A stretch of 64,000 nucleotides of DNA from an uncultured Candidatus Poseidoniales archaeon (GCA_964577145.1 CAZNXM010000006.1:878-64877), one strand, 5' to 3'. Positions 6,731-60,065 are shown, counted from the stretch's first letter. Made by a program: numbers and translations. Notes: generated by a model from the sequence alone, not told the origin.

Positions 6731-6998
6731 TCTTAGGCACCTACGGTGCCACCGAAGACGAAGCCCTCTTTCAGCATTGGCCCACTTATGCTAGATTTTA
6801 TTGGACGGCTTTACTGGTATTTCGTAGTGAAATAGCATCGTGAACATCAATACATATGCCCTGTTCAGTCCACTCTTGACATCTGTCCCAGCATCTGCCG
6901 AAATATCCAATTTACAAAGTATTCTGAATTTTCAACAAAACCACCAGAAGCGAGGATTCAAAGAAGGTGGCTGAGTCGCGCGGAGCGCGGTGAAGGAG

Positions 6999-41299: not shown

Positions 41300-41315
41300 A
41301 CCGGCATCATGAAAA

Positions 41316-42503
41316 GTGGAACCTAGAGGGCAGGTTATGTTCAAAGGGACGGTCGAGAGGGTCAGCCACGAAGGTGGTTTGCTCGTTAGCTACAGCGGCT
41401 CATGTCCAGCCCTGGGTTCAGTCATGGTCGATGGAAGTGAGAAATATGTCGGCAAAGTCGATGGAGTAATCGGCAACCTAGACAATTCACTTGTCCATAT
41501 CGCCCACTTGGATCGCAAGGCTAATGCAAATTCCTTAGTAGGGGCTGAAATCACAATTCGCCCTCGCCGTCAAAGAGATGACAGGCGACCTGCAAGAGAT
41601 GACAGACGAGGACGAGACGATCGAAGAGGACGTGATGACCGTCGTGGTCGTGATAACAATCGTGACGGGGGTTACAATAATGATTGGGATTGCCCCAAGT
41701 GCAACAACTCAAATTTCTCTTTCCGTACAGAATGCAATCGCTGTGGAGAATCCAAAGGCGGAGGTGGAGGAGGACGTGGACGTGACGACCGAAGAGGACG
41801 TGACGACAATAGAGGCCGAGACGAACGACGTGGCAGAGATTCCGGCCGTGGTGAAGACTGGTTGTGTCGCGATTGCGGCAATATCAACTATGCAAGTAGA
41901 AGTGAATGCAATCGCTGTCAGAAACCTAAGAGTGAACGAGATTCTAGACCTGAGCGTCGTGAAAGGCGAGATGACCGTCGTGGACGAGACGATAACCGTG
42001 GTAGAGATGGACGAAGAGGTCGTGATGATAATCGTGACAAAGGTCATTTCACCAACAATGATTGGGATTGCCCCAAGTGCAACAACTCAAATTTCTCTTT
42101 CCGTACAGAATGCAATCGCTGTGGAGAATCCAAAGGCGGAGGTGGCGGAGGACGTGGTCGTGATGATAACCGCGGTAGAGATGACCGTAGAGGTCGCGAT
42201 GACCGACGCGGACGTGACGACCGTAGAGGACGAGATGACCGACGTGGACGTGACGACCGTAGAGGACGAGATGACCGACGTGGACGTGACGACCGTAGAG
42301 AACCTCAGAAAAGAGCTGGAGATTGGGATTGTCCTAAATGCCGAAAGAACAACTTCGCAAGCAGGGATGAATGTTTCAGTTGCGGTACCTCCAAGCGAGT
42401 AGGTGGCCCTAGACAAAAGGGGCACCACTTCTCACGAGACCCATCGCCACTCCGTTCACAGAGATACGGTAAGGGCGATGGAGGCAGAAATGATGAACGC
42501 TGA
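41316..42503 (+). CDS. Gar1-like beta-barrel protein fused to RD/RG-rich low-complexity arrays, Gly tracts and four RanBP2-type zinc fingers (putative RNA-binding protein)
   Basis: N-terminus (GTVERVSHEGGLLVSYSG…LGSVMVDGSEKYVGKVDGVIGNLDNSLVHIAHL) matches the Gar1 core pattern; four W-C-x2-C-x3-N-x6-C-x2-C fingers (e.g. DWDCPKCNNSNFSFRTECNRCGESK); DDRRGRDDRRGRDD repeats. Confidence 0.6.
   Translation: MEPRGQVMFKGTVERVSHEGGLLVSYSGSCPALGSVMVDGSEKYVGKVDGVIGNLDNSLVHIAHLDRKANANSLVGAEITIRPRRQRDDRRPARDDRRGRDDRRGRDDRRGRDNNRDGGYNNDWDCPKCNNSNFSFRTECNRCGESKGGGGGGRGRDDRRGRDDNRGRDERRGRDSGRGEDWLCRDCGNINYASRSECNRCQKPKSERDSRPERRERRDDRRGRDDNRGRDGRRGRDDNRDKGHFTNNDWDCPKCNNSNFSFRTECNRCGESKGGGGGGRGRDDNRGRDDRRGRDDRRGRDDRRGRDDRRGRDDRRGRDDRRGRDDRREPQKRAGDWDCPKCRKNNFASRDECFSCGTSKRVGGPRQKGHHFSRDPSPLRSQRYGKGDGGRNDER
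41679..42145 (+). repeat. Intragenic direct repeat: two perfect 89-bp copies (41679-41767 and 42057-42145) encoding identical RanBP2 zinc fingers
   Basis: Identical string 'aatgattgggattgccccaagtgcaacaactcaaatttctctttccgtacagaatgcaatcgctgtggagaatccaaaggcggaggtgg' at both positions. Confidence 0.85.
42180..42300 (+). repeat. 36-bp tandem repeat array (about 3 units) encoding DDRRGRDDRRGR
   Basis: 'gaccgtagaggacgagatgaccgacgtggacgtgac' repeated head-to-tail. Confidence 0.8.
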
Positions 42504-43527
42504 AGACCATTATCTCGATGCAATTGCTGCAGAAGATGAAGGTGATGTTGAAGGTGCTCTCAAGTCGGCTAGAGCAGCCGTAAAGGCTGACCCTGCTCAT
42601 GCTGAATCTTGGTGGATGATTTCTAGTCTAGAATTATCTGATACGTCACAAGCAGACCTAGGTCGAGCATCTAGGTCCTTGACCGCGTGCAGAAAAGTAG
42701 TCGCTCTGGAACCATCAAGAGTAGATGCTTGGGTTAGAGGTGGTCGCCTAATGGCAGACGAACTTGGGTTGTATGAGGATGCACTCTTCTGGTGGCAAGA
42801 ATGTCGTGAAGTTGCGCCATTTGAATCTGTACCACTCGTCGAACAAGCTGCTATTCTTACCGATATGGGGTTCTATGACAAGGCAATGGATCGCTTAGCA
42901 GCAATTCAGGAAGAAAACCTCGATGTTGGCACCGCTCAATTCACTAGAATTAGTAGATTGCATGCATTGGTTTCAAAGGCAGCAGAACAAGACAAGGGTA
43001 ATCACTTCCGCCCTTGGGAGAGAAATCACAATGGATGGAGTGCCATTCATTCAAGGAGAAACAAAGGCCCGGTATCTGAAAATTTGATTTTTATGATGAC
43101 TACCGTACCATTTCTGATGATGGAAGTTTTCATTTCTAGGGCATTATTCGGCGATGGCTGGACTGGTTTTTGCCTAACATCTATCATGATTCTAATCACT
43201 GTTATCATGGGCATGAGGTTTACTCGTGGATTGTTCCAAAAGGTGAACAGACCAGCATTTAATCTCCTTAGAGCAATGGATTTTGAGGCGAGTACTGCAA
43301 AATTGGTCATTCCAGATGATGTACGGGATTCTCGGCTCTACCTTTTCCTCGTAGGTAGAAGAGCACGTGCATATCAAGAAAGATATTCCAAGATTGTCCT
43401 AGCAGGAAAAACCCTACCGCGAAATTGGAAACCTAGGTTCCCTGACTTCGATTCTCACCTAGATGATATCGGAATAATCGAAGATGATGATGATTCCAAT
43501 GAACTCCCTGGATTTGAGGAAGAGTGA
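42475..43527 (+). CDS. TPR-like helical N-terminal domain protein with two TM helices, unknown function
   Basis: The ORF opens at 42403, overlapping the upstream gene; ATG 42475 (MEAEMMNAEDHY) is the likely start. Amphipathic helical repeats, then two hydrophobic helices. Confidence 0.45.
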   Translation, partial: AMEAEMMNAEDHYLDAIAAEDEGDVEGALKSARAAVKADPAHAESWWMISSLELSDTSQADLGRASRSLTACRKVVALEPSRVDAWVRGGRLMADELGLYEDALFWWQECREVAPFESVPLVEQAAILTDMGFYDKAMDRLAAIQEENLDVGTAQFTRISRLHALVSKAAEQDKGNHFRPWERNHNGWSAIHSRRNKGPVSENLIFMMTTVPFLMMEVFISRALFGDGWTGFCLTSIMILITVIMGMRFTRGLFQKVNRPAFNLLRAMDFEASTAKLVIPDDVRDSRLYLFLVGRRARAYQERYSKIVLAGKTLPRNWKPRFPDFDSHLDDIGIIEDDDDSNELPGFEEE

Positions 43528-44823: not shown

Positions 44824-44845
44824 AGGTCAATCGGTTGAGTGGCCA

Positions 44846-44867
44846 CTCCGGCCCTTACGGGCCGGAG
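44846..44867 (-). terminator. Perfect 9-bp GC-rich stem-loop (CTCCGGCCC-TTAC-GGGCCGGAG) directly after the stop of the giant surface-protein gene and before ahcY
   Basis: Inverted repeat read directly from the sequence; 3' of the 44893 stop on the minus strand. Confidence 0.5.
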
Positions 44868-44892: not shown

Positions 44893-47800
44893 CTACTGTT
44901 GCTGGAAATGCCCAGCATATTGCTGGGCATAAGCCCGCGCCGTTTCTTCTGGGTATCCCTGTGCGATTAACTGCTGCACATACTGTTCCATTGGGTCCAT
45001 TTGTGCGACTCCACCATATCCTGCTGCTGCTGTCGCATTGAAATCCTTAACAGTATCATCCTCATCACTTCCGCCTCTTAAGACGAAGAATAATGATAAT
45101 ATGACTACAAGAAGTAGACCAACACCAATCGATGCATACATAATCATGTCACTGTTATCGCCAGAAGTAGGATCTTCAGTCTTCGGTTCAGTAAAGGTAC
45201 CATCACCTGGATTGAATGTGTATTCTCCTTCCCACTCACAAGCATCATTTGCCCAAACCCAGCGTCCTTCAGGATCCTCTGCAAGAACCTCAACTGGAAC
45301 TTCCAAACCTTGGCATGCTGGTAGGTGAATAATGAGATACTTCTCTACAGGCCAGCGCTTGTCATCGCCTTCATAGATTAGCAAGTATATCTCCTGCGTA
45401 GAGGTTTCATTGGTGTATAGGTCAGAGATGGTTAGAGTAAGGTCAAATCCATCTTCATCACCAAGTTTGTCTGACTTTGCCCAACTTCCCTCGAGTTGCA
45501 TGTTATACTTTGCAACTGCAGACTGTTCGAATGCCTCTGAACTCAGTGCTGCTTCGACATAGACATCTCCTTGCTCAGCACCCGAAAGTACTGTTCCAGA
45601 GATAGTAATGGTATCAGAAGTGACTTGGCTACCATTGACTGATAGGTCGATTTGAACCACTGGTTCTTCATCCCCGAATCCTTCTGGTACTACTGAGAAA
45701 TACATACGGTATTTCTCGCTAGACTTTCCAGCCTTATCGAATACGACTAATTCGATACGGATTAGAGATTCTGTCTGTCCACTTGCGTCTACAGTTACAT
45801 TCTGGAAAGTGTATGCCCATGCACCATCAGAAGATGATGGCTTGGTGAATACGTGACCTTCGAGATCGAAGTTGTCATCGCCATATGGGGCATCAAAGAG
45901 TACTGTCCACTCATAGGTGTCGATTCCATTTCCATCTAAGGCATCTGCATCAGAGGATTCGGATGCATCGAAGTGGATGACAACCTCTCCATCCTCATCA
46001 AGGTGAATTCGGTTTACCGGCCAATCTGTGTCAGATACTGTCTTAGTACCACGGTTCTCAATTTGGTCTTGGTATTCTTCACGCATGTCGATAACAACAT
46101 CTGCAACTGGTCGGTGCTCATCAGCCCGCACATCGTCGGTCATGACAGTGACGGAAATTGAGCGCCCGTGTCCAGCAGCATCGTGTAAGTAAAGTGTGAT
46201 ATCCCAAGTTGCACCCTGAAGACATCCAGTTGCTGAAGATAGGTCGACCTTACAGAAAGTAGAGGTCGGGCTCATCTCATCGGTATGGTCGGTACCACTT
46301 GCCATTGAAGCTCCAAGCCAATCGGTTGGACCGCTGATTACCCAATCGGTCGAAAGTGGCTCAGATGTAGCGGTAGTGTATCCAAAGGTTACCTGTGAAT
46401 CACTCTTCATGTAATGGTAAGAATATCCACCAGTCGAAGGGTCGAGAGTTGGAACCTCTCCATTGATTGTGAGGTCTAGTCCGTTTCCTAGAGTACCAAA
46501 GCCCTGAGGGTATTGGCTAACCTGGTAAGATAGCATGTTACCCAATAATGGGAAAGTAGCACTGTCAGCACGCTCTGAAACTCCTGCAACATCGATTGTG
46601 GTGACAATCATTCCACCGTCAACATAACTGCATGTTGCAAGCACAGTATCCTGTGGCTCTGCTTCAGACTGAATAAGGCGCTGGAATCCACCGCCATTCT
46701 CTGAATATCCATTACATGCGGATGGGATAGAAGTTGCTGCAACACTCTTGGTGTTGAGTACTGCTTCTGTCACTGTTCCGTATTGGTCGAAGCCTTGGAA
46801 GGCTGCTAGGTCTACTCCGTCAAGAATTGGATGGTATGCATCTGCAACATCCATGTTGTTGTATGTAACACGGGTTTCAGGAGTGTTTCTAGGTTGTACA
46901 TCCATGTCGAATGGAAGTAGGCTAGATCCAGTACTGCTACTAAACTCGTAATAATCGGTAGATGTTCCAAGATGAACCTGTACAGTTCCACCTGAAGACA
47001 TGAAGTTCTTCAGAGTGGTCTTATGACTTGAGATACCCAACTTCTCGTAGTATCCCTTGCCTCCTGCATCAGAAGGTTTTGCGGTGTTGACATCTTGAAT
47101 TGGCATCAGAACCTTGTCATAATGAGTTAGCCATCCAGTCTCTAGATAATCATCCCAGTCGTTGATATCGAACTGAGTATAACTCATATCGAGGAGAACC
47201 AGATCCTCCTTGATTGACTGAGTACGCGATGTATCACCGGACAGTATTGCGACATCAACCATGTCAGCGAAGCCAGCATGGAAGAATCTCTCATTTCCAG
47301 ACATGTCACCATTTGGTAAGGTTGCATGATAGGTTATGTTGTATGTGTGGCCATCTTGCCAACCATTCCATGGTGTGAATGAGACCATGGTCCTCTCATG
47401 AGGCCCAAGGACCTGTGAGGGTCCAGCAGTCGTAGTATGAACTTGGCTACCATCTGCAAGGTCGTTGATGGTCATGTGGAAGGTGTAATCACCTTGTAAG
47501 ACACCATTGGTTGCAGAAAGTCCCCAATCATGGGTTAGTACGCTATCGATTGGTAGCACACAATCTAGAACCACATCGGAAAGACAAGAAATCTGGTCTG
47601 GCTTTCCAAGTGTAATATCTACGCTTTCAACCGAGAAGATAACTCGTGCTAGGTTATTTGCAACAGATATCTCTTGGTGGCCATACCATGAGGTTCCAGC
47701 AGTTGTATTATCGAAGAGTGTCTCGATTTCAATCTTGTAAACACCAGAAACGAAATCGTGGTCTGAAATTGCTATTGTTCGGTTTTCCTCTGCATCTAGG

Positions 47801-50800
47801 TCGATGACGGTGGATGAATAGGTCGCATCTTGGGTGAAGGTGAATTCTTCCAAGGAGATATTGTCGAATGCAATACCACGAACGCCATCATTCTGGCCAT
47901 TATGGCCATCATCGTTCGACTGGAATTCAAAGTTGAGGTCAACTGTTGAACCAGCTAGACTTAGGCACTCAGGACCCCAATTATTGGAATCTATGTCTGA
48001 GTTGTTAAACATGTATAGATGAGTTAAGTCGATACTACGTGACTTGACAAGACCATCGCTATTGTAGAAGATTTCCCAGTTTCCTGTTCCACCATTTACA
48101 TTGCGTGAATCACCGATTAAGTCTACTTCTATTCCATCAATCTGTGTTTCATTCTCGTCGATGAAACCATCACCGTTCTCATCGACTAAGCATGTTCCAT
48201 CCTCGTTGTAATCGTTCCATTGTCCCCAAAGAACTCCAGAGTAATCGGTTCCTCCTCGGTTCCAATCAGCGGTCAATGCAGCATAATCGCCAACATTGTA
48301 CGCATCTCCATCAGCATCAATTTCGAACCAAGTCTCAGCGAAGTATTCGAAGTTTAGCGCAACGAAGTCTCCAGACATATTGTTCAAATCAATATCGGGG
48401 ATTGTTAGGGTCTCATTCTCCCACACGTCACCGAAACTGTTCGGAGTATCACATGGGTTTCCAAACCAATAGGAGTGTGAGCCGAATAATACCTCGGGGC
48501 AGGTAGAATCGTCTACGATTCCGCCATTTCCATTATTGTCATCAGTGTAGCGGAATCCAGAAGATCCTCCCTCAAACATCTCATCGCAAACAACTAGTGG
48601 CGAGCCACAGTAGATGTCTGCAGGAAGTGCGCTGTAAACCGATGCTTCAACATCGAATGAAACATTGGTGTTTCCAAAGTGTTCGACTTGAACCTCGATT
48701 GGGAATATTCCCTCAGCGTATAGCCCACCAGGATTGAATGATTCGATTTCATTAACTCCAGGGTCAAAGATGTTGAATGCAGTGATGTATCCCACAATCT
48801 CATCATTTGCCGGCTGCTCATCCTGACCATAATTCAAGGTAGCTGAAATTCGGTAAGTGGTTCCGTTGACGAAGTCAGCAGTAATCGAAGATGTGTATTC
48901 ATCATTTGGTGCGAGGTTGTTCATGTTGATGTTGGACTGCTTGGTCTGTACATTGCTTGTGAATGCAGTATTTTGCTTCCAAATTGAAATGTTATCGAGA
49001 GCGAAACCATCTCGACCTGTCCAACGAGATTCTTCATCATTGGAGTTAGATCCTTCCCAACCCGACTTGAAGCGGAAACGAATATCGACAGTCTTGCCTG
49101 CGAAAGTGGAGAGGTCGAATGCACCAAGGTCATCCTCAGTGAAGTTGCCCCATCCATAGTTGGTTCCTGCTGAATAGACACCATAGTAGGAAATCGATTC
49201 AGCATATCCACCCTGTTGAAGATTGAATACTCGGTCAGCATCATATCCGCCCCATATACTCTCTCCAGAAGCGCATTGTCCAGAGAAGTACGCTTCATTT
49301 GGACAGCCAATGGTAACCCAACCATAGTCTTCATCGAAAACCTCGATGATTGCCATGTCATCCCAAATGTCTGCAAGGATATATTGTCCAGATTGGTCCT
49401 GTATGAATGTAGATGCATATCCAAGATGACGGAAAATCTCCATACTCATCCAAGCACGGTCAGCGCCGGTTAAATCTACATCTTCTAGAATCATTGCTTC
49501 ATCCCAATTTGCACCATAACCAGACCATTCCGAGCCAGAACTATTTGTTTCATAGGTTCCAGACCACATGTAATCAGTTGGATTATTGGTATTAGCATTC
49601 TGTGCTGGCGCGTTATTACCTGATGTGTGGCCAGTTGTATGATTGGTCTCTTCCATCCAGTGATGGTTGCCAAAGTAGGATTCGTATGTCCAGGTACATC
49701 CAGAGGTGCAACCTGTCTTGACCTCAGAATTATCCCAGTCCATCTCATAGACTGTGACATTGGTTGAAGCTGCTTCATCGACTTCCTTGATCTCAACATC
49801 GAGAGTCGCTTGACCGTTCAGAATATCCATTCCAGTATTCTTCACTGTTACCTCAACATCCCTGTTACCTTCTCCTAAAGCACCGACATATGCATCGGTT
49901 GGAGAAATATCGATACTAGAAACTGCAAGGTCCTTGTTGTCCATTTCGACTACGACAATTCGGTCATAAGAACCGTCCCATCCCCAATTGTCATCCCAAG
50001 TGGTCTGATCGTATGCACCATGTCCTACGACAATATCTGGAGCACTATTTGGCCCACCGATAACCTGTCCTATTACTGCAGTTGTTGGACGCATTGCACC
50101 AAAGTATGCCAATGGGCTCATGTGTCCACCTCCACCATTGGATAAGGTGACCTGAACACTTGTTGGCAAGTTAAGGTAGAAATTGCTTGTAGAGTCGCCT
50201 GTAGACGAAGTTGAGTTCGACTGCTTGAACTTAGCAGCGTGGATGAAATCTGGCTCACCATCACCATTGAGTTCAGCAATTGTTACTTCCCATGCGATAT
50301 ATGGGCCAAAGTACACTGTCTTCGAAGCACTATAGGTATGAGTTGCTTGATTGATTGTAGCATAAGTTACATTCTCGGTATTGCCGTCATTGATAGCGAC
50401 TACGTCGATGATTCCATCATTGTTCATGTCGCCAATGTCCATTCCGCCAAATTCAGGGCCTACTGCGTGGACGTGCATGCCGCTACCACCTGTTGAACTC
50501 CATGTCACTGCTGTAGGGAATCCTTGGGCTGGATTAAGACAATCATATTCGATGACTGTCATGTTATCGGACTTTCCTGGATTTGTTGCTGCTCCAGTTA
50601 GGTAATCCACTCCTTCAGAGCGAACTAACCAGAGATCTACATCGTCACAATTTCCGTTAACTGGATGAGTTTGACTCGTCTCTCCCCAATCACCTAATTC
50701 TAATTCACGATAGGAATTTTGAGTAGAGTCTCCTAGGCTGGTAAGTTGACCATTTGTGGAAGAAGTAATTGGTCCCATATAGGTGACTACTCGCTGATTC

Positions 50801-51393
50801 TTAAGGTCAGCAAGTAACTCAAGAGTGACGATGTCATCATTACCATCCTCATCCAAATCCGCTACTGCCAGGTCCCACATCCAGACAACATCGAAGCGCT
50901 CTCCGACTGTGAATGTATCAACACTGCAACCATCGTTCTCGATGATTGTTACGTTACCAGGTTTGTCAACGACTATCGCTCCACTAGAATCTCGCTTTAG
51001 TGGTTGGTTGCGTGCATAGATAACTATGTCAATAGCGCTGTCACCAGTGAATTCTCCAACTTCTACTTGTTGAGTGTTAGAATGATCTTCGAAGTTTGCA
51101 TTCATACTGGTATTTGCTGAAGTCCAAATATCTGACCTGCGCTGGAATTGGCCATTGTCATTCCAAAGAACTGAAATTTTCAAGCTCTGGTCATTCGCAG
51201 AAACGATATCTAGGTCGCCATCACAATCGAAATCTCCCAACGCTACATCGACAGGATCTGTACCTGTAGAATATTGCCGGGAAGTAGAAGCCGAAGCCAT
51301 ATTCGCAGCAGTTGTCGAAAGCAACATCAGAAGGGCAAGTAGAACCGCTCTATTGCGGCCACCATCATTCAAGGTCTTCCAAAGCATCATCAT
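44893..51393 (-). CDS. Giant (about 2166 aa) secreted surface/adhesin-like protein with FG-GAP/integrin-alpha-like repeats, C-terminal TM anchor and a Q/Y-rich cytoplasmic tail
   Basis: Signal peptide. Repeated DxDxDG Ca-binding loops (DFDCDGDLDIVSAND, GDMNNDGIIDVVAINDG, LNGDGEPDFIHAA). TM helix IMYASIGVGLLLVVILSLFFVL, then a tail of about 55 aa. The track start at 51396 is GTG; the first ATG is at 51393. Confidence 0.7.
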   Translation of the reverse strand: MMMLWKTLNDGGRNRAVLLALLMLLSTTAANMASASTSRQYSTGTDPVDVALGDFDCDGDLDIVSANDQSLKISVLWNDNGQFQRRSDIWTSANTSMNANFEDHSNTQQVEVGEFTGDSAIDIVIYARNQPLKRDSSGAIVVDKPGNVTIIENDGCSVDTFTVGERFDVVWMWDLAVADLDEDGNDDIVTLELLADLKNQRVVTYMGPITSSTNGQLTSLGDSTQNSYRELELGDWGETSQTHPVNGNCDDVDLWLVRSEGVDYLTGAATNPGKSDNMTVIEYDCLNPAQGFPTAVTWSSTGGSGMHVHAVGPEFGGMDIGDMNNDGIIDVVAINDGNTENVTYATINQATHTYSASKTVYFGPYIAWEVTIAELNGDGEPDFIHAAKFKQSNSTSSTGDSTSNFYLNLPTSVQVTLSNGGGGHMSPLAYFGAMRPTTAVIGQVIGGPNSAPDIVVGHGAYDQTTWDDNWGWDGSYDRIVVVEMDNKDLAVSSIDISPTDAYVGALGEGNRDVEVTVKNTGMDILNGQATLDVEIKEVDEAASTNVTVYEMDWDNSEVKTGCTSGCTWTYESYFGNHHWMEETNHTTGHTSGNNAPAQNANTNNPTDYMWSGTYETNSSGSEWSGYGANWDEAMILEDVDLTGADRAWMSMEIFRHLGYASTFIQDQSGQYILADIWDDMAIIEVFDEDYGWVTIGCPNEAYFSGQCASGESIWGGYDADRVFNLQQGGYAESISYYGVYSAGTNYGWGNFTEDDLGAFDLSTFAGKTVDIRFRFKSGWEGSNSNDEESRWTGRDGFALDNISIWKQNTAFTSNVQTKQSNINMNNLAPNDEYTSSITADFVNGTTYRISATLNYGQDEQPANDEIVGYITAFNIFDPGVNEIESFNPGGLYAEGIFPIEVQVEHFGNTNVSFDVEASVYSALPADIYCGSPLVVCDEMFEGGSSGFRYTDDNNGNGGIVDDSTCPEVLFGSHSYWFGNPCDTPNSFGDVWENETLTIPDIDLNNMSGDFVALNFEYFAETWFEIDADGDAYNVGDYAALTADWNRGGTDYSGVLWGQWNDYNEDGTCLVDENGDGFIDENETQIDGIEVDLIGDSRNVNGGTGNWEIFYNSDGLVKSRSIDLTHLYMFNNSDIDSNNWGPECLSLAGSTVDLNFEFQSNDDGHNGQNDGVRGIAFDNISLEEFTFTQDATYSSTVIDLDAEENRTIAISDHDFVSGVYKIEIETLFDNTTAGTSWYGHQEISVANNLARVIFSVESVDITLGKPDQISCLSDVVLDCVLPIDSVLTHDWGLSATNGVLQGDYTFHMTINDLADGSQVHTTTAGPSQVLGPHERTMVSFTPWNGWQDGHTYNITYHATLPNGDMSGNERFFHAGFADMVDVAILSGDTSRTQSIKEDLVLLDMSYTQFDINDWDDYLETGWLTHYDKVLMPIQDVNTAKPSDAGGKGYYEKLGISSHKTTLKNFMSSGGTVQVHLGTSTDYYEFSSSTGSSLLPFDMDVQPRNTPETRVTYNNMDVADAYHPILDGVDLAAFQGFDQYGTVTEAVLNTKSVAATSIPSACNGYSENGGGFQRLIQSEAEPQDTVLATCSYVDGGMIVTTIDVAGVSERADSATFPLLGNMLSYQVSQYPQGFGTLGNGLDLTINGEVPTLDPSTGGYSYHYMKSDSQVTFGYTTATSEPLSTDWVISGPTDWLGASMASGTDHTDEMSPTSTFCKVDLSSATGCLQGATWDITLYLHDAAGHGRSISVTVMTDDVRADEHRPVADVVIDMREEYQDQIENRGTKTVSDTDWPVNRIHLDEDGEVVIHFDASESSDADALDGNGIDTYEWTVLFDAPYGDDNFDLEGHVFTKPSSSDGAWAYTFQNVTVDASGQTESLIRIELVVFDKAGKSSEKYRMYFSVVPEGFGDEEPVVQIDLSVNGSQVTSDTITISGTVLSGAEQGDVYVEAALSSEAFEQSAVAKYNMQLEGSWAKSDKLGDEDGFDLTLTISDLYTNETSTQEIYLLIYEGDDKRWPVEKYLIIHLPACQGLEVPVEVLAEDPEGRWVWANDACEWEGEYTFNPGDGTFTEPKTEDPTSGDNSDMIMYASIGVGLLLVVILSLFFVLRGGSDEDDTVKDFNATAAAGYGGVAQMDPMEQYVQQLIAQGYPEETARAYAQQYAGHFQQQ

Positions 51394-51446
51394 CACTCAT
51401 TTCGCCGACTTCCCCCTCCACTTTAATCCCTTTGGGGTACTGTCTC

Positions 51447-51458
51447 TCGCAATTGCGA
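51447..51458. promoter_or_regulatory. Perfect 12-bp palindrome TCGCAATTGCGA about 55-65 nt upstream of the giant surface-protein gene start, next to an AT-rich (CATATTT) element
   Basis: Read directly; a related ATTGCGCAAT lies at 56348-56357 upstream of the second giant gene. Confidence 0.4.
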
Positions 51459-51514
51459 AATATGGGCTCGCAGTGCAACGAATAAATGAAAAGGCCGTGA
51501 ACCCAAGGAATCAC

Positions 51515-52192
51515 TTACAATGTACGTGAAAGCCATCCCGGAGAGGGGCCCCAACCAGTCTCATCGCCACCATGAACCTTGACGAGTTTTCCTCCTCTAA
51601 ACAAACTCTCTAACCAGAGTTCTAGTTCCAAATCTTCTCTATCGCCGAGAAGGTCGGTAGCTGCAAGTTCAATATTCTCGGTAGAAATAGCAGTAATTCC
51701 ATAGGTTCGAACTACAATTCTGAGAAGTTCCTTTAGCCAAGCCTCAGCCATTGGGTCTGTGGACATCGGATCCTTTGTTGGAAATGGCTTCTCGAGTTCA
51801 TCTAATTCATCACGGAGGTCTTCAGGAGTAGGCCGTTCTGGCCTCTCAAGTCCAACCTCATCTAGCTTAGCGGCGAGGTCTAGTTGACCAATTGGGCGTC
51901 GAACGATTGGGATTCTAGATGGATCTGGTTCCGGGCCCATATCTTTTGGCTTACCAGATATTTCGATTGAGGAATCATCGGAAAGTCCAGATGATGACAA
52001 ATTGACGCTATCAACCGCCAAAGGCATCATCCAACCGACCCCATCGAGGCCGAGTTCTTTCACAAGACTGCGTACCCAGTCCGCTTCGCCCTCAAATAGA
52101 ACATCTACGTCCTCTTCGGCGGAACGAAAGCGATAACGGACATATCCGCGCAGTTCGTGCATAATTCGACCCCATAGGTCAAGGGAAATCAA
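51515..52192 (-). CDS. Acidic cytoplasmic hypothetical protein between the two giant surface-protein genes
   Basis: 225-aa ORF; no TM helix or signal peptide; no recognised motif. Confidence 0.45.
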   Translation of the reverse strand: MISLDLWGRIMHELRGYVRYRFRSAEEDVDVLFEGEADWVRSLVKELGLDGVGWMMPLAVDSVNLSSSGLSDDSSIEISGKPKDMGPEPDPSRIPIVRRPIGQLDLAAKLDEVGLERPERPTPEDLRDELDELEKPFPTKDPMSTDPMAEAWLKELLRIVVRTYGITAISTENIELAATDLLGDREDLELELWLESLFRGGKLVKVHGGDETGWGPSPGWLSRTL

Positions 52193-52201
52193 ACCACCGG
52201 T

Positions 52202-55200
52202 TCAGACCCTTTCGAATTTACCGTCGGGATGTTGCCACCACCAAACGCCATCAAGCGTTTCATACCATGTGCCATCATCCCTCTGATGATACTGACCGCC
52301 ACCAGGTAATTCCTCCCAAGAGCCTAGTATTTGTGGAGCGTCACCGATTGGCTCCACCACTTCCTCAACTGTAGCAATTGAGTCTACAGGTGCTGGTTCA
52401 GCAATTTCCATTGGGTCAATTGCTGGCATTTGCTCGGTTTCAACCGATGGTAACGAAAAGTCAACTTCTTCTTTGTCAAAAATTTCTTCTTCTCTATTAC
52501 GGAATACAAAGAAGAGGGACCCGGCAATAATTAGGACCACAGCACCTAGGATGCTAAGGGTAAGTGGAGTGATGATTGATTTTGATCCATCATCGATTGG
52601 GTCCTCATTATCGCTTGGCTCAGGCTCAGGCTCCGGCTCTGGTTCGGGTTCAGCAATTGTGAAGTTATGTGTTCCCTCTTTGAGAGTGAGCCAATAACCT
52701 CCTCTATCCTGAGATTCTAGTCGCCAATCAAGAACATATTCTCCAACATCCATTCCATCCTTAATCGTACATGAGATTTCATCGGTTGCTTGTGAATCCA
52801 CGATTATCTCATTGCAATCGAAATTCGCTGAGGGTTTCGAACTAATGATTCGTACTGTAGTTGGATAATCTCCTGCATTGGTCACCGAACAGTTGGCATC
52901 GCTACAGAATGCAATGAGCTCAATATTCCACCAAGGCGTTGCATCAACGTCTTGCGAATAATTCTCACATTCATTTGTGCTACATATTTCAAGCGTGACA
53001 TTATGCGAAGAATTACTCAAATTCGATAGCGATAAGAGTTCAGAAAGAGTACCATCCACTATGGGAACTACTAGCCAGACTTCATCATCTACTATCCAAT
53101 TTAGAGTCCCTTCGCCGGTTCTAAATATTACATCACCAGATAATATGACACTCTCTCCATCAACTATCAAGGATACATTTGTGGAATTTATTACAGGAAG
53201 TGGCACTGGGATATCAACCAAATCGATTGTGGTATCGACCTCATTAGCAAAATTATCTCTCACATGTATTTTAGCGGTATATGCGCCCGGAGATAGAACG
53301 TTTTTGTCCAGTATTGTGTAACCAATTCCATTGCTGGTTTGCTCAATGATTTCAGTTCCAATATTCTCACCATTAGGCCCGAAAATGATTGCCCAAACAC
53401 TTACCGTATCTCCTGCTTCTATTTCCCACTGGACATCTATTCTGACCTCGTCGATAGTCTCGGTTGATGTTGCTGAAAGTATTACTGGAGGGACTCCATC
53501 TCTAAGATAGAAACTTGCATCATTGCCGTTATGTAATCCATCTTCATCGGCCTCTCCGCCATTTGGCTCCTCGGCAAAGACCTCTACATCCCATGAACCG
53601 AGGTCCGCAAATTCAGGTTCCCACACTACAGAATATACGGAATCGGATGAATTCCATACCATCTGAAGAGTCTGCGTTGAAGATTCTGAGTCCAGTTCTA
53701 TTTCGACATTGAGATCGCTTCTATCATTAGCATCCTTGACTAAGAAACGAAGATTATCTGGAGTGCTGAAACTACCATTATTTGCTGGTTCGCCATCAAC
53801 AGTCATTATCGCAAGTTGACTTACCGAAGGTAAGGCTGGTAATACCGTAATCGAATCCGCATTTAACTGAGTTACTGAGTTGCCATTTGCATCGGATAAC
53901 TCTACGCTAATCCACAGAGAATGTTCGGTACTTGCATCCAATTGGTAAGTTGGAACACTCCCCCAATATCCCTGTATTTGCGAGTTCCAAGCTAATGGAA
54001 TACTCGTAATATTCACGAGTTCAGTTGCAGCAGATACTGAAGATGAATGTGCCCACATTTCCCCTTGCAAGTCATCATCTGCAAGATTATCACGTACGAT
54101 TACTACGATAGTTTCTCCATTTCTAGCATCAGCATCGTCCACTCCATCGACCTTATGTGAGACCGATTGGATTTGAGGTTCGATATCATCAATCCATACG
54201 ATGTTCAAATTTTTGAGTTCCAATGTTTGATTCCACATCTCACCTTCTGGGTCCCCTTTGACATCAATAGAATATTCATCGAGACATGCTTCTGTAGCAG
54301 CGTACCATGAACCACACTGTGAAATTGCATGAGTTTCCATTGCCGATGAAAATTCAAGGCTGCCAACAATAGTGTGATGGAAACTGGCATTTGTAATGTT
54401 AAATGCGGAAGGATTTGACAAAGTCAAACTAAAGTTAGAAACCGCCCAATCAATACCTTCAGAGGTTGAATTGTAAACTGTTGGCCATTCGTTTTGAATC
54501 ACACTCATTGGGATAATTAGGTCAATTCCCCCAGCAACAACATCTGCTGAGGACCACGAAATTGTGTATCCACTATCGAATGTACCTGTGACATTTCCAG
54601 TGAATCCTGGCTCCACATCCATCCACATTGAAAAATCAGTGACCGCTGTTCCGTTTAATGGAACATCTATCCACAAATCAGCTCCTGTTGCCGTTGGCGA
54701 AGAACCACCTTCCTCGAGCCAACCAATAGGCATTTGATGTACGAGAGGATCTAGAATGGTTTGACCTTCTAACTCGATACTGAGATTCTCCATGTGTTCA
54801 ATATTCGTTGAACCCGGCACAATAGCGGTTAGAATTGGAGATGCTCCAGCACTCGACCTCTCAAACTCATATAGTAAACTGATATTAGAAAATCGTGGTA
54901 ATTCCTGATGGGAAAGATTGCCATCTAACCACCCAGACCAGTCTATTCCATTCATTGTGTAATTATATTTCATGTCCAATACTGCGCCTGCTGGAACCGA
55001 CGCAGTTGTATTCAACCATGCCCTTTCCACAATTTCGTCATCCCCTAATCCTGGGATTAAGAAACTGCCATTATACGCAGTAGTATTACCACTAGAAACA
55101 AATCCAGTGAAAGTAGAATATGAGGTATTTCCTACAACACTATTTGACCCTGCAATCCCATCTGAACCAGTTCCCAGTTTCAGACCATAGTCGCCACCAG

Positions 55201-56293
55201 CACCTGCTGAAACATCAACTGTACCGGAGTTTGTTATTCCACTTGGAAGAGTCGTCATTGTGATGTATCCGCCAGAGCCGCCTCCACCGCCGTCACCACC
55301 ATGGTAAAGGAAAAGGGAAGGCCCAGATGGCCAAACTGCATCTGCACCATCGCCACCATCGCCTCCAGCGGAACTAACGATTCCATTTGAGCCGATTGAG
55401 ATAGCGTTTGCTTTGAGAATAATTGAGCCACCAGAGCCGCCTCCTGCAGCATTACCACCGTTTCCACCATTTGGTGGAGCAGGGCCATTGTCACCTACGC
55501 CACCATTCGTTGTAATCGTACCATTAATCGTGATTGTGCCTGCAACAATAGTAATCACTGTACCGCCATTACCACCGAGAGTTGTCGCGCCACTAGGATG
55601 TGAATTTCCTCCACCGGGGGAGCCGGGTTCTGTGCCATTTCCATACGATGAGCCACCATTAGTAGAGGAGCCACCGCCATCGCCTCCTGCGCCAACGTGA
55701 CCTCCACCACCGGCTCCATCGCCAATCCAACTACTGGATGCGGTCTCTGAACCACCATTACCAAGGTAAGTGTTAACTCGATCACTTCCATCAATGCTAG
55801 TAAAAGAATCAATGATTACTTCATTTGCATGAATTGTAAGATTTCCAGTTGCAGTAATTGAACCGCAACTAACAATTCCACATGATAATTGTAAGGTATC
55901 ATATGCATGGAATCCTTGCAGATTTGAATTGTTGAATAAATGAAGTTGTGCAGTTCCAGCCGTAGAAGGGCCAACTGTAGATTGATTTAGAATAAGCCCA
56001 TTTGTCGTTGAAGTCAAATTGGTTGCATTTCCGATATAAGTAGAATATGTCGCCATATCCATTGTCCAAGATTCGTCAACTATTTCAGGTGATAATTCCC
56101 AATCGAATGAAGCTGAATCAGCCCGGTATCCAGCGTTATGAGGAATGGCTGTTGATTCATTCAAACCTGGGTGAAGCAGCACATCGGTTTGCAAAAATTC
56201 GAACTCATCAGCAATTACTGGATTTGCAGTGATAATGGGGACTATTGCAGACATTGCCAACAAAAATGCAATCGAAAATGACTTTGTTTTCAT
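52202..56293 (-). CDS. Giant (about 1363 aa) secreted surface protein: Gly/Asn-rich beta-helix-like region, PEPEPEPEPEP linker, C-terminal TM anchor and cytoplasmic tail of about 100 aa
   Basis: Signal peptide MKTKSFSIAFLLAMSAIVPIITANPVIA (ATG 56293; the ORF opens at 56323). GGxGGxGG-rich segment; (PE)n linker before TM helix IITPLTLSILGAVVLIIAGSLFFVF. Confidence 0.65.
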   Translation of the reverse strand: MKTKSFSIAFLLAMSAIVPIITANPVIADEFEFLQTDVLLHPGLNESTAIPHNAGYRADSASFDWELSPEIVDESWTMDMATYSTYIGNATNLTSTTNGLILNQSTVGPSTAGTAQLHLFNNSNLQGFHAYDTLQLSCGIVSCGSITATGNLTIHANEVIIDSFTSIDGSDRVNTYLGNGGSETASSSWIGDGAGGGGHVGAGGDGGGSSTNGGSSYGNGTEPGSPGGGNSHPSGATTLGGNGGTVITIVAGTITINGTITTNGGVGDNGPAPPNGGNGGNAAGGGSGGSIILKANAISIGSNGIVSSAGGDGGDGADAVWPSGPSLFLYHGGDGGGGGSGGYITMTTLPSGITNSGTVDVSAGAGGDYGLKLGTGSDGIAGSNSVVGNTSYSTFTGFVSSGNTTAYNGSFLIPGLGDDEIVERAWLNTTASVPAGAVLDMKYNYTMNGIDWSGWLDGNLSHQELPRFSNISLLYEFERSSAGASPILTAIVPGSTNIEHMENLSIELEGQTILDPLVHQMPIGWLEEGGSSPTATGADLWIDVPLNGTAVTDFSMWMDVEPGFTGNVTGTFDSGYTISWSSADVVAGGIDLIIPMSVIQNEWPTVYNSTSEGIDWAVSNFSLTLSNPSAFNITNASFHHTIVGSLEFSSAMETHAISQCGSWYAATEACLDEYSIDVKGDPEGEMWNQTLELKNLNIVWIDDIEPQIQSVSHKVDGVDDADARNGETIVVIVRDNLADDDLQGEMWAHSSSVSAATELVNITSIPLAWNSQIQGYWGSVPTYQLDASTEHSLWISVELSDANGNSVTQLNADSITVLPALPSVSQLAIMTVDGEPANNGSFSTPDNLRFLVKDANDRSDLNVEIELDSESSTQTLQMVWNSSDSVYSVVWEPEFADLGSWDVEVFAEEPNGGEADEDGLHNGNDASFYLRDGVPPVILSATSTETIDEVRIDVQWEIEAGDTVSVWAIIFGPNGENIGTEIIEQTSNGIGYTILDKNVLSPGAYTAKIHVRDNFANEVDTTIDLVDIPVPLPVINSTNVSLIVDGESVILSGDVIFRTGEGTLNWIVDDEVWLVVPIVDGTLSELLSLSNLSNSSHNVTLEICSTNECENYSQDVDATPWWNIELIAFCSDANCSVTNAGDYPTTVRIISSKPSANFDCNEIIVDSQATDEISCTIKDGMDVGEYVLDWRLESQDRGGYWLTLKEGTHNFTIAEPEPEPEPEPEPSDNEDPIDDGSKSIITPLTLSILGAVVLIIAGSLFFVFRNREEEIFDKEEVDFSLPSVETEQMPAIDPMEIAEPAPVDSIATVEEVVEPIGDAPQILGSWEELPGGGQYHQRDDGTWYETLDGVWWWQHPDGKFERV

Positions 56294-56338
56294 ACCACTC
56301 ACAGTGCCCCAAATTATTGACATATTTAGACTACTAAG

Positions 56339-59039: not shown

Positions 59040-60065
59040 TCACCAGAATTGCCACCAAGGGGTGGAACTTCCTTCTTCAGGAATAGTTACTGATACTATT
59101 GTTACATCCTCAACAGGCTTGTCGCCACTCATTGTAGTTACTTGAGAAATAGCATCGACATGCACCTTACCTTCGATCACTTTTCCAAAGACTGTGTGAA
59201 GGCCATCAAGATGACTAGGGGTGCTATCCTTATCGACGATGAAGAACTGTGAGCCACCGGTATGTGGTGCACTTGTCTTAGCCATCGAAAGCACATATGG
59301 AGCATGTATGACTCCATTATCTGCCTCATCAGGAATTGTGTAGGAGGTTACTGAACAATCAGACGCTGAATTTGCTTCTTGTCCGTCACAGTATCCAAAG
59401 AATTTAGCTGCATGGCCACCAGTGCCTGAATTTTGAGTGAAATCTCCTCCTTGAATCATGAATTCATCTATGACGCGGTGGAATAATACGCCATCATACT
59501 TGCCTTCTTGGGCTAGTAAAGCGAAATTCTCAACATGGATTGGTGCATCATCTGGATATAATTCGATAATTAGAGTTTCAGTATGTTCTACTCCGGCGCT
59601 ATCGGTCCAGTTTACGACCATGCTCGCTTCTGTGGGAAGAGCGGAGCCACTCTGGCTATTTACCGCTTGAACACCGGCTATTACGAGTAATAGGGATGCA
59701 ACCAATGCAAAAATTCCTGCTGGAGTTGGTGCTCCGCCATCAGTCATTAAACGTGGAATTACAGTCTCAGAAACGTGCTTGTCTTGCATTTCATTGCGCA
59801 GTTGATTGTAAAGTGAATTTGCTTGCTTATCACGAGGATTCTTTCGTACTGAATCTCGTAATAGTTTAGCGGCTTGGCGATATTCAGCCTTAGAACCACT
59901 TTTTCCTGCCTTCAAGTATACTGCTTGTCCAGCAAGTCTTAGAGTTGTAGCATGGGTTCCATCGGGGTCTGCATCACGCAATACATCCAATGCGCCCTCG
60001 GTTTTACCTTTGCTGAGGAGCCCTTCTGCCTCTTTCCATGCGTCTGCACGCTTATCGTCGGCCAT
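59040..60065 (-). CDS. Membrane-anchored cyclophilin-type peptidyl-prolyl cis-trans isomerase with an N-terminal cytoplasmic helical (TPR-like) region
   Basis: 341 aa; N-terminal helical region, one TM helix (LVASLLLVIAGVQAV), then cyclophilin core 'FHRVIDEFMIQGGDF…GTGG'. Confidence 0.8.
   Translation of the reverse strand: MADDKRADAWKEAEGLLSKGKTEGALDVLRDADPDGTHATTLRLAGQAVYLKAGKSGSKAEYRQAAKLLRDSVRKNPRDKQANSLYNQLRNEMQDKHVSETVIPRLMTDGGAPTPAGIFALVASLLLVIAGVQAVNSQSGSALPTEASMVVNWTDSAGVEHTETLIIELYPDDAPIHVENFALLAQEGKYDGVLFHRVIDEFMIQGGDFTQNSGTGGHAAKFFGYCDGQEANSASDCSVTSYTIPDEADNGVIHAPYVLSMAKTSAPHTGGSQFFIVDKDSTPSHLDGLHTVFGKVIEGKVHVDAISQVTTMSGDKPVEDVTIVSVTIPEEGSSTPWWQFW

Follow-up and report, generated by a model that had tools for sequence, protein, structure and literature searches.

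Judging by the source names of homologues and loci, the 64,000-nt stretch of DNA analysed here, which we call the window, belongs to an archaeon of Marine Group II (Ca. Poseidoniaceae). Its minus strand carries three co-oriented open reading frames (44893-51396, 51515-52192 and 52202-56323), as the original prediction had it, and these encode two very large proteins, here giant 1 and giant 2, and a small protein whose gene lies between them (Table 1). The prediction took the three genes for one island of surface proteins. Its observations stand for the reading frames, the architectures of the giants and a hairpin after the last gene, and fall for the start of the small gene, the short gap in front of it and a pair of palindromes; of its interpretation, the type I giants, the integrin-alpha-like character of giant 2 and the linkage of the small gene with giant 2 are supported, while the island is not. 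The 2,166-aa giant 2 and the small gene are a pair; the three genes are not one unit.

The GC content of the three-gene region is slightly below that of the rest of the window (0.444-0.448 over giant 1 versus 0.40-0.49 across the window), a scan of nine proteins at and around the locus brought up no integrase or transposase, and the only tRNA of the window is at 63101. By composition, mobility genes and flanking repeats or tRNA the region does not qualify as a genomic island or mobile element, patchiness being a property of giant 1 only. The PADLOC models of anti-phage defence matched none of the three proteins, and our search of the literature found no expression or abundance data on these genes.

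Table 1. Positions of genes and features within the window
Feature	Position	Strand	Remarks
GC-rich hairpin CTCCGGCCC-GTAA-GGGCCGGAG	44846-44867	-	9-bp stem, 26 nt after the giant 2 stop
Giant 2	44893-51393	-	2,166-aa type I membrane protein; ORF, homologues, AF2 model
Giant 2 cytoplasmic tail	44896-45060	-	residues 2112-2166, 55 aa; alignment
Giant 2 tail motif DPMEQYVQQLIAQGYPEETARAYAQQYA	~44917-44979	-	near-invariant
Giant 2 TM helix	45061-45156	-	single, C-terminal, residues 2080-2111; hydropathy peak 2.82; aligned in homologues
Giant 2 FG-GAP/VCBS beta-propeller head	49948-51282	-	residues ~38-482; Pfam, AF2, Foldseek, regex loops
BRE/TATA-like element CAAAGGGATTAAAGTG	51419-51434	-	~25-40 nt upstream of the giant 2 start
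Palindrome TCGCAATTGCGA	51447-51458	-	intergenic
Small protein gene	51515-52162	-	215 aa; homologue starts, alignments, AF2
Small protein, winged helix	51518-51757	-	residues 136-215; C-terminal, acidic
Small protein, proline-rich motif	51881-51952	-	residues 71-94, KPKDMGPEPDPSRIPxVRRPIGxL
Element ACCGGTGGTTTGATTTCC	52184-52201	-	directly after the stop of the gene preceding the small gene
Giant 1	52202-56293	-	1,363-aa type I membrane protein (ORF 52202-56323, 1,373 aa)
Giant 1 W-rich module	52220-52267	-	end of the tail
TGGTATGAAA, 3' repeat copy	52258-52267	-	same direct repeat; L017 scar alignment
Giant 1 TM helix	52493-52585	-	residues ~1237-1267
Giant 1 (EP)6 linker	52616-52651	-	residues 1215-1226
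TGGTATGAAA, 5' repeat copy	56288-56297	-	bounds the giant 1 deletion of L017
Aconitase stop	56339		upstream of giant 1
Palindrome TTGCGCAA	56349-56356	-	inside the aconitase coding sequence

A conserved gene block and its variable insertion

We compared the locus with 80 GTDB species-representative loci, of which 75 extend far enough to show giant 2 and 79 are informative for aconitase. The order cyclophilin-aconitase-small gene-giant 2 was found in all 75 of the loci that extend far enough, with giant 2 directly after the small gene in every case, and aconitase stands ahead of the small gene in 79/79, at a distance of about 6-160 nt. The same order recurs on 11 contigs whose small-protein homologues are only 26-46% identical (L097-L101, L104-L110), and on one contig the C-terminus of aconitase is fused in frame to the small protein. 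The cyclophilin of the block is membrane-anchored. The flanks of the block rearrange: several clades lack AdoHcyase or have it inverted, and L106 carries additional inserted genes. Giant 1 is the only gene seen to interrupt the block itself, and it does so after aconitase, never after the small gene. Giant 2 is a core gene of this conserved housekeeping block and not island cargo.

The picture of two giants bracketing the small gene is not supported, for of the 79 informative species loci just one has giant 1 at this site, as have the closest metagenome relatives of the window (L040 and L013-L016 only). Synteny had been proposed as a check on whether the giants occur independently, and the outcome is divided: giant 2 accompanies the small gene in every lineage examined, whereas giant 1 does so in a few lineages only. 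A homologue of giant 1 that is 85% identical resides in another genomic context (L010-L012). In the nearest relative of the window, L017, giant 1 has been removed by a deletion of 4,030 nt between two 10-nt direct repeats, a case of microhomology; the scar was placed by a three-way alignment with both copies of TGGTATGAAA, a sequence that occurs exactly twice in the window where 0.2 copies are expected by chance. These repeats explain the loss of giant 1 and not its arrival.

Giant 1 has a signal-peptide-like start, a Gly-rich tract (residues ~160-400) with seven GGxGG motifs at residues 203-342, beta-rich repeats, the Pro-Glu linker, the TM helix and a 96-aa tail; of these the GGxGG motifs, linker, helix and tail had been predicted. 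For the beta-helix suggested in the Gly-rich tract the one hint is a match to the Pfam family Gly_rich_2 that stays sub-threshold (E = 0.029). The W-rich module that ends the tail, of the form ...LPGGxY..DG.WY...G.WWW..PDG.F.R, is kept across divergent members of the family. A search with the tail (98 aa) returned no Pfam family at E <= 10, a WW domain being rejected on this ground; the module is reminiscent of one in its two-Trp pattern only, and no description of such a module was found in the literature searched. Of the 51 homologues of giant 1, 15 are close and the others 26-35% identical; some carry an SGNH domain (PF13472) or a lectin C domain (PF00059). Sequons for N-glycosylation are enriched (34 versus 14.9 +/- 3.7 expected). 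Giant 1 belongs to a separate, fast-evolving and patchily distributed family and is dispensable, movable cargo. It resembles the variable, glycosylated and adhesin-like giant surface proteins of the flexible genome of marine prokaryotes, and the MGII 'adhesion-domain' hypothetical proteins noted by Iverson 2012 (as cited in Orsi 2015, PMC4511931), in being large, sequon-rich, fast-diverging and patchy, in the varying domain content of its homologues and in its presence/absence polymorphism among near relatives; it differs from them in the conserved cytoplasmic W-rich module at the C-terminus of its family.

The small protein and the signals between the genes

The most likely start of the small gene is the ATG at 52162, giving a protein of 215 aa and not the 225 aa first proposed: its homologues are 213-215 aa long and open with MxELRG, and a GGTGAT-like Shine-Dalgarno sequence precedes the equivalent ATG in relatives. 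Because this start is the probable one, the gap that follows the stop of giant 1 is 39 nt and not about 10 nt, and the suggested co-transcription of giant 1 and the small gene is unsupported, since it depended on a TTG start that is probably wrong. The acidic, soluble character foreseen for the protein was confirmed (pI 4.5, without a hydrophobic segment). The original prediction had made the conservation of this reading frame a test of itself and the frame is conserved, with 795 homologues, none of which is named. There were 104 matches only among 1.84 billion cluster representatives, and none in Pfam, NCBIfam, PADLOC or the PDB. The small protein is a lineage-restricted cytoplasmic family.

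Its AF2 model (pLDDT 75.8) predicts an N-terminal alpha/beta domain (beta-beta-alpha-beta, residues 7-47), a disordered linker carrying the invariant proline-rich motif, two helices and then the winged helix, composed of helices 137-154, 161-167 and 177-189 and strands 193-198 and 201-206. Fold searches returned generic winged-helix matches only (DsrD, F93, Zalpha), with E above 0.1 in each case. We considered a DNA-binding regulator and rejected it, the fold being present and a basic surface and a conserved operator being absent. The winged helix has a net charge of -6, a pI of 4.6 and an acidic third helix, and this acidity favours protein binding over DNA binding.

Giant 2 and the small gene each appear to have a promoter-like element of their own. 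The BRE/TATA-like CAAAGGGATTAAAGTG keeps its position in all 29 relatives inspected, slightly varied in L082, L083 and L091, and has no other close copy in the window; it is a putative dedicated promoter of giant 2. ACCGGTGGTTTGATTTCC follows the stop of giant 1 here and that of aconitase in relatives. A comparison of the upstream regions of 35 loci found the element conserved in the clade with small proteins of ~65% identity or more, and a TTGAT/TTGAA core in more distant clades as well. A T-run lies between the small gene and giant 2 and, taken with the separate elements, it removes the operon argument for this pair.

The palindromes said to be shared by the two giants are two different sequences. 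TTGCGCAA is lost in L017, where it reads TTGCGAAA, and in L019, where the codons differ, and we rejected it as a regulatory element because it lies within the aconitase coding sequence and is not kept in relatives; TCGCAATTGCGA is not conserved beyond the nearest relative in the intergenic comparison. The elements that are conserved, ACTGCG and CAAAGGAATTAAAGTG, are not palindromic. The GC-rich hairpin expected after the last stop is present, and RNAfold places hairpins of different sequence at the equivalent position in L001, L040, L047, L053 and L008. No T-run follows it and no terminator-like site was called there.

Giant 2 and its cytoplasmic tail

Both giants are type I membrane proteins by hydropathy, in agreement with the first reading. 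In giant 2 a signal peptide (residues ~1-37) is followed by the FG-GAP propeller, a stalk of beta-sandwich and MAM-like jelly-roll domains, the TM helix and the tail. An HMM above its curated threshold (PF13517), the propeller fold and calcium loops place it in the FG-GAP/VCBS superfamily: FG-GAP_3 scored 49.2 bits over three stretches against a Pfam cut-off of 26.9 (E = 7.9e-13), although FG-GAP itself (PF01839), the family named for the domain check, remained just under its threshold (21.5 versus 22.1). Homologues of giant 2 carry both families. A regex search found DxDxDG-like loops at residues 54, 179, 322, 952, 1061 and 1071, of which those in the propeller, DFDCDG (54), DLDEDG (179) and DMNNDG (322), are putative metal sites. 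An AF2 model of residues 1-1200 (pLDDT 72.7) has ~28-31 beta-strands at residues 38-482 and is taken to show a multi-bladed propeller, a fold that typically has seven blades. The top Foldseek matches of this model in the PDB are the integrin alpha subunits alphaV, alphaM, alphaX, alphaIIb and alpha5 (E = 1.6e-12), and the probability is 1.0 against integrin alpha propellers and aldos-2-ulose dehydratase. At the level of the fold, the modelled structure supports the integrin-alpha-like character that had been read from the DxDxDG loops.

The likeness to integrin alpha extends from the N-terminal propeller with its loops and the beta-sandwiches behind it to the single-pass type I topology with its short tail in the cytoplasm. 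In contrast, sequence similarity is confined to the FG-GAP repeats, giant 2 is about twice as long, and its MAM-like jelly rolls and alpha/beta-looking segment have no counterpart in integrins. There is no beta subunit or vWA gene nearby, a vWA-like domain being absent from all nine ORFs scanned around the locus by Pfam, and another motif stands in the tail in place of KxGFFxR. Without that motif and without a beta subunit nearby, giant 2 does not qualify as a bona fide integrin alpha subunit. Integrin-type/VCBS FG-GAP beta-propellers (PF01839, PF13517) are known from prokaryotes (Chouhan et al. 2011, PMC3192720; Pereira and Lupas 2021, PMC8023676); the bacterial integrin-type proteins that PMC3192720 describes lacked TM helices, unlike the archaeal giant 2.

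The tail reads RGGSDE...YVQQLIAQGYPEETARAYAQQY, and the helical motif YVQQLIAQGYPEETARAYAQQY is nearly invariant in an alignment of 18 lineages that includes orthologues at 37-40% identity. The tail motif is duplicated in one clade and, among all the loci fetched, is restricted to orthologues of giant 2. A UBA domain (PF00627) was rejected for the tail, its 14.7 bits over 18 residues only (E = 0.029) falling below the gathering score of 22.4 and amounting to a resemblance. Full-length homologues of giant 2 are 2,160-2,260 aa long and 53-99% identical, and the protein is an order-wide, apparently single-copy core surface protein of the Poseidoniales.

A proposed surface receptor and its possible reader

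Our tentative proposal, to which we give somewhat less than an even chance, is that the core protein giant 2 is a receptor whose tail is read by its small neighbour. Giant 2 would project from the membrane and bind external ligands through its modelled propeller and jelly-roll domains, the candidates being particles, polymers and neighbouring envelope proteins. The invariant tail would be read inside the cell, most likely by the small protein, and the putative contact may be made by the acidic winged helix or by the invariant proline-rich motif. Such reading would resemble, in outline, that of cytoplasmic adaptors on integrin tails. Talin, kindlin and filamin are comparable in that a cytoplasmic protein is proposed to read the short conserved tail of an adhesion receptor, whereas the small protein, an alpha/beta domain joined to a winged helix, has no relationship to them in sequence or fold. 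Given the separate promoter-like elements, what links the two genes would be function and dosage, and not obligatory co-transcription. A role as partner or chaperone, suggested earlier for both giants, would be compatible with the data for giant 2 only.

The adjacency of the two genes may also be no more than frozen synteny, because aconitase and the membrane-anchored cyclophilin are neighbours just as constant. The small protein would then be a general cytoplasmic factor with no functional tie to giant 2, perhaps a winged-helix adaptor in a housekeeping process or an aconitase-associated factor, in a block that is never broken. We take this to be a serious contender, if on the doubtful side: aconitase precedes the small gene in every informative species locus and on the 11 divergent contigs, the small gene and giant 2 each show a promoter-like element, with a T-run lying in between, and the aconitase fusion points the same way. 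However, the families of the small protein and giant 2 share a single lineage to which both are restricted, suggesting that they arose together, and rearrangement does occur at the flanks of the block. The single insertion seen inside it parts aconitase from the small gene while the small gene stays with giant 2, and the invariant tail needs a reader, with no other apparent nearby.

A different question is whether giant 2 might be an S-layer or main envelope lattice protein and not an adhesin or receptor, its tail and the small protein serving in anchoring or assembly. This concerns the role of giant 2 only, fits either view of the small protein and is in our judgement unlikely. Archaeal S-layer glycoproteins, that of Haloferax volcanii for example, commonly combine a signal peptide with a C-terminal membrane anchor. 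Giant 2 shares this layout, a very acidic ectodomain, the status of an apparently single-copy core gene and a strong-looking, highly conserved promoter-like element; conservation is even along ~2,000 residues and indels are nearly absent, as expected where lattice contacts are many. Against this, its sequons are at chance level (24 versus 22 +/- 4 expected), family searches gave no match to a known S-layer family, and no PGF-CTERM-type sorting signal was recognised. It is also far larger than such glycoproteins and has a conserved structured tail, and a propeller on a stalk is more typical of receptors and adhesins.

The single island, with the small protein as chaperone or winged-helix regulator of both giants through shared palindromes, can draw on the adjacency and common orientation of the genes in the window, on an acidity like that of many secretion chaperones and on the winged-helix fold, but it is very improbable and largely refuted by the lack of giant 1 here in 78 of the 79 informative species loci and its other context in L010-L012, the unlike and unconserved palindromes, the acidic winged helix, the unlikely TTG start behind the 10-nt gap, the barely lowered GC content and the lack of mobility genes among the proteins scanned.

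The receptor reading of giant 2 can be carried one step further, to an integrin-like linkage of independent origin in the Poseidoniales in which the helical YVQQLIAQGYPEETARAYAQQY of a propeller-headed, single-pass receptor is bound by the 215-aa protein, as a dedicated and lineage-specific adaptor, through its acidic winged helix or PDPSRIPxVRRPIG. We consider this step improbable. If true, the cell would couple an intracellular response to its contact with particles or algal surfaces, or would control from within where surface proteins are placed. The giant 1 family and its W-rich tail module would then represent a second, exchangeable receptor class with a different tail code.

Gene models and setting of the locus

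The three minus-strand genes, whose presence and placement are borne out by the ORF calls, encode a core surface protein of type I topology and integrin-alpha-like build whose tail is invariant (giant 2), a lineage-specific cytoplasmic protein that is always adjacent to it, and a second giant that is dispensable (giant 1). The original prediction had drawn them together as one island in which the small protein might be chaperone or partner to both giants. Its observations were largely accurate save for a start codon, a gap and the palindromes, but its interpretation was only partly correct: the linkage of the small gene to giant 2 is conserved, while giant 1 is variable in position and has been lost from the nearest species-representative relative (L017). 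The names under which homologues of all three proteins are filed include Candidatus Poseidoniaceae and Poseidoniales archaeon, so the window, which has a GC content of about 46%, belongs to a Marine Group II (MGIIa) archaeon. That nearest relative, ETNP1_MAG_19, is identical to it at 97% in aconitase, 96% in giant 2 and 95% in the small protein.

The small gene had been started at a TTG at 52192, leaving a gap of 10 nt. Homologues of the protein are 213-215 aa long and start MxELRG, and in relatives a GGTGAT-like Shine-Dalgarno sequence stands directly before the ATG equivalent to 52162; the gene therefore most likely begins there and encodes 215 aa, with 39 nt between the giant-1 stop and this ATG. 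Giant 1 most likely starts at the ATG at 56293, since the gene calls of its homologues align from the same residue, and giant 2 starts at one of the ATGs near 51393. Palindromes had been proposed upstream of both giants; one lies within the aconitase coding sequence and neither is conserved in relatives. The hairpin after the giant-2 stop is real, and hairpins of differing sequence occur at the same position in relatives. Beyond it lies ACCGATTGACCTATG, which is kept across the clade with adjacent S-adenosylhomocysteine hydrolase (AdoHcyase) and runs into the start codon of that gene; its first bases are similar to ACCGGTGG, an element that precedes the small gene. Three neighbours of AdoHcyase recur downstream of it in relatives and, elsewhere in the window, a large polytopic protein adjoins two subtilase genes.

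Features of the locus and its neighbourhood (window coordinates unless residues are given)
Feature	Position	Description
Giant 2	44893-51393 (-)	2,166 aa
Giant 2, signal-peptide-like segment	residues 16-35	hydropathy
Giant 2, TM helix	residues 2080-2111	one, strong; hydropathy
Small gene	51515-52162 (-)	215 aa
Small protein, N-terminal domain	residues 7-47	beta-beta-alpha-beta (AF2)
Small protein, linker	residues 51-95	disordered (AF2)
Small protein, two helices	between linker and winged helix	AF2
Small protein, winged helix	residues 137-212	canonical (AF2)
Giant 1	52202-56293 (-)	1,363 aa
TGGTATGAAA	56288-56297; 52258-52267	10-mer, only two occurrences in the window
ACCGGTGGNTTGATTTCC	52184-52201 (-)	about 30 nt before the small-gene ATG
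ACCGATTGACCTATG	44826-44845 (-)	after the giant-2 hairpin
Pyruvate:ferredoxin oxidoreductase (divergent), cyclophilin, aconitase	upstream flank	housekeeping
AdoHcyase, TPR protein, RanBP2-type zinc-finger protein	downstream flank	housekeeping
Cyclophilin	59040-60065 (-)	TM helix at about residues 116-135; PPIase domain, residues 163-327
Three recurring neighbours	39413-43527 (+)	628-aa type I membrane protein (signal peptide, C-terminal TM, no Pfam match); protein bearing an (RGRDD)n repeat besides four RanBP2-type zinc fingers; single-TM TPR protein
Polytopic membrane protein	8983-13026 (+)	1,347 aa; many hydrophobic segments, long Glu-rich acidic C-terminal region, no Pfam match
Subtilase genes	6990-8912 (+); 13027-14289 (-)	adjoin the polytopic protein

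A conserved block in the Poseidoniales

Across GTDB species, each represented by one genome, a pattern scan yielded 199 stretches that encode relatives of the small protein. The 80 best loci, all of them from Poseidoniales, were retained and six window proteins were placed on them by tblastn. Among these 80, giant 2 lies downstream of the small gene at all 75 loci whose contig reaches far enough, and aconitase lies upstream at every informative locus (79 of 79). Where the contig reaches that far, cyclophilin lies upstream of aconitase; AdoHcyase follows giant 2 in some clades only. More divergent relatives came from a profile search of 1.84 billion representatives (104 hits, about 20 full length). 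The order aconitase, small gene, giant is found on 11 contigs (L097-L101, L104-L110) whose small proteins are 26-46% identical to that of the window and whose giants are 2,114-2,305 aa long; L102 and L103, too short for their neighbours to be identified, are outside this count. One of the 11, a contig of 3.0 Mb, keeps the block in rearranged surroundings. The recurrence of the same order in species loci and divergent contigs makes the small gene/giant 2 pair order-wide. The sole break seen inside the block is giant 1 itself, which sits between aconitase and the small gene and leaves the latter still adjoining giant 2.

Such constancy is also what would be expected of frozen synteny in which nothing functional ties the small protein to giant 2. 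The adjacency of aconitase and cyclophilin is just as order-wide, so synteny alone does not discriminate between a functional tie and an unbroken ancestral block.

The N-terminal 115 aa or so of the cyclophilin are helical and cytoplasmic; a TM helix follows and then, outside the membrane, a PPIase domain bearing an NWT sequon. Given this anchoring and its membership of the block, the cyclophilin could act on secreted proteins as an extracytoplasmic foldase. Two contigs of the metagenome-assembled genome SP3054 (PBGS01; L041 and L043) each carry a complete block from cyclophilin to AdoHcyase, with small proteins 70% and 69% identical to that of the window; this is probably a mixed bin rather than a true duplication. 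In one clade (L004-L006, locus positions 1-1434), a gene lying a few genes upstream of the block codes for a protein of 1,164 aa that has faint EF-hand hits and may be another large Ca-binding surface protein.

The two proteins of the pair

Searches of Pfam, NCBIfam, PADLOC and PDB sequences with the proteins, whole and in segments, returned FG-GAP alone above threshold; InhA-like_MAM (0.056), Gly_rich_2 (0.029), UBA (0.029) and MG2 (0.061) fell below it. The threshold match is that of FG-GAP_3 to giant 2, to which PDB sequences, NCBIfam and segment-wise Pfam searches add nothing but a sub-threshold MAM-like hint. The predicted DxDxDG-like loops are present, three within the propeller and three beyond, as are the TM helix and a tail of 55 cytoplasmic residues; the protein has a pI of 4.05. 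Residues 1-1200, modelled with AlphaFold2 from an alignment of 33 sequences (pLDDT 72.7, pTM 0.64), are all-beta. Integrin alpha subunits are the top Foldseek matches of this model in the PDB, with alphaV (1.6e-12) followed by alphaM, alphaX, alphaIIb and alpha5, all with probability 1.0; another high-ranking match is aldos-2-ulose dehydratase, a propeller enzyme. The domains are arranged differently from those of the matches and TM-scores are therefore low, so the modelled likeness to integrin is one of domain types and their order rather than a rigid match. Beyond the modelled part, a segment at about residues 1380-1640 has an alpha/beta look. Integrin-type FG-GAP propellers are known in prokaryotes (PMC3192720, PMC8023676), and the bacterial proteins described in PMC3192720 are without TM helices, whereas the archaeal giant 2 has the full head-stalk-TM-tail layout. 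By integrin-specific tests giant 2 falls short, being without the KxGFFxR motif and having no beta subunit nearby.

Homologues of giant 2 are full length (2,160-2,260 aa, 53-99% identity), with an even identity of 0.5-0.7 per 50 residues and almost no gaps, dropping solely at the membrane-proximal stalk and TM region; the orthologues of divergent lineages are 37-40% identical throughout. The tail motif DPxE(Q/A)YVQQ(L/M)(I/V)AQGYPEETARAYAQQY is near-invariant in 18 of 18 aligned lineages and is duplicated in one clade (L004-L006). Across the window and all fetched loci it is confined to giant-2 orthologues, and its sole database resemblance is the sub-threshold UBA hit. We considered that tail motifs might be modules shared among many membrane proteins; in the same material each is restricted to its own family. 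Some 25-40 nt upstream of the giant-2 start, CAAAGGAATTAAAGTG, at 51419-51434 in the window, is kept in 29 of 29 relatives inspected, and another 50 nt or so upstream stands a conserved ACTGCG with a T-run after it. We infer that the former is a BRE/TATA-type promoter and the latter the end of the small-gene transcript.

The small protein is acidic in all its segments and has no hydrophobic stretch. Its AF2 model (pLDDT 75.8) has four parts. Conservation within the family peaks in a proline-rich motif of the linker, GPxPDPSRIPxVRRPIGxL, and a C-terminal KVHGG..GWGPSPxWL is also kept. Searches of Pfam, NCBIfam, PADLOC and PDB profiles gave no hit, and the fold matches are generic winged helices with non-significant E-values. 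The winged helix carries a net charge of -6 and no conserved palindromic operator is found near the gene, which argues that the domain is a protein-binding module; a role as a DNA-binding regulator was rejected on the same two grounds.

Directly after the stop of whichever gene precedes the small gene lies ACCGGTGGNTTGATTTCC, kept at equivalent positions in L001, L017 and L019-L047; it may be a promoter, a terminator or a processing site. P0089, a 365-aa protein from a 1.4-kb ENA contig, joins the aconitase C-terminus to the small protein in one reading frame, with no stop in the spacer. This fusion probably reflects a rare variant or a sequencing error, given that the 38-40 nt spacers elsewhere are mostly out of frame. 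Programmed readthrough from the preceding gene, which P0089 and the in-frame 39-nt spacer had suggested, was rejected as a general feature in view of spacers of 38 and 40 nt in relatives.

Giant 1 and the Marine Group II cell surface

Giant 1 has the glycine-rich tract (with seven GGxGG motifs), linker, here (EP)6, TM helix and tail (96 aa) that had been predicted, together with a signal peptide and beta-rich repeats, and is enriched in sequons (34 against 14.9 +/- 3.7 expected). Fifteen of its 51 homologues are close; the others are 26-35% identical, some of these divergent proteins having added SGNH or C-type lectin domains. A W-rich module at the extreme C-terminus, ...LP(P)GGxY...DG.WY...G.WWW..PDG.F.R, is kept across divergent homologues and has no Pfam match.

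The gene occupies the window site in L040 (75% identity) and in the four closest metagenome contigs, L013-L016. L010-L012 carry an 85% homologue flanked by ABA4-like and YgaP-like genes, and one scaffold, possibly chimeric, carries such a homologue together with a giant-1-free aconitase-small gene-giant 2 block. When the flanks on L010 and L011 were compared with the window with regard to horizontal transfer of giant 1, they had no counterpart there. L017 is without giant 1 but retains a scar in which the ORF passes, exactly at TGGTATGAAA, from its first ~36 nt to its last ~70 nt, leaving a frameshifted 34-codon remnant (L017 7097-7200) after a deletion of 4,030 nt between two repeats of this 10-mer. 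The scar and the two window copies indicate that the common ancestor had giant 1 and that L017 lost it through a microhomology deletion. As variable cargo of the surface, giant 1 stands outside the conserved unit, and it is a clean example of presence/absence polymorphism of a surface gene (4 kb) between genomes whose neighbouring proteins share 95-97% identity.

Marine Group II archaea, which are uncultured, rank with the most abundant archaea of surface oceans; to our knowledge, their cell envelope is undescribed. In the literature found, their adhesion is treated in general terms only (archaella, thrombospondin-like and unnamed adhesion domains), and our searches returned no paper on the small gene/giant 2 pair and nothing specific on Marine Group II FG-GAP/VCBS proteins or a Marine Group II S-layer. 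The locus points to one very large surface protein, full length and in the same place in every lineage examined. The small protein may read the cytoplasmic tail of giant 2, and the two make a testable candidate tail-adaptor pair; the rival readings are frozen synteny and a lattice (S-layer) role for giant 2. Giant 2 is a candidate main envelope or attachment protein and a possible virus receptor, and a target for metaproteomics, antibodies and cryo-ET. The result is a conserved, uncharacterised gene pair in an important uncultured group, together with a clear case of surface-gene loss.
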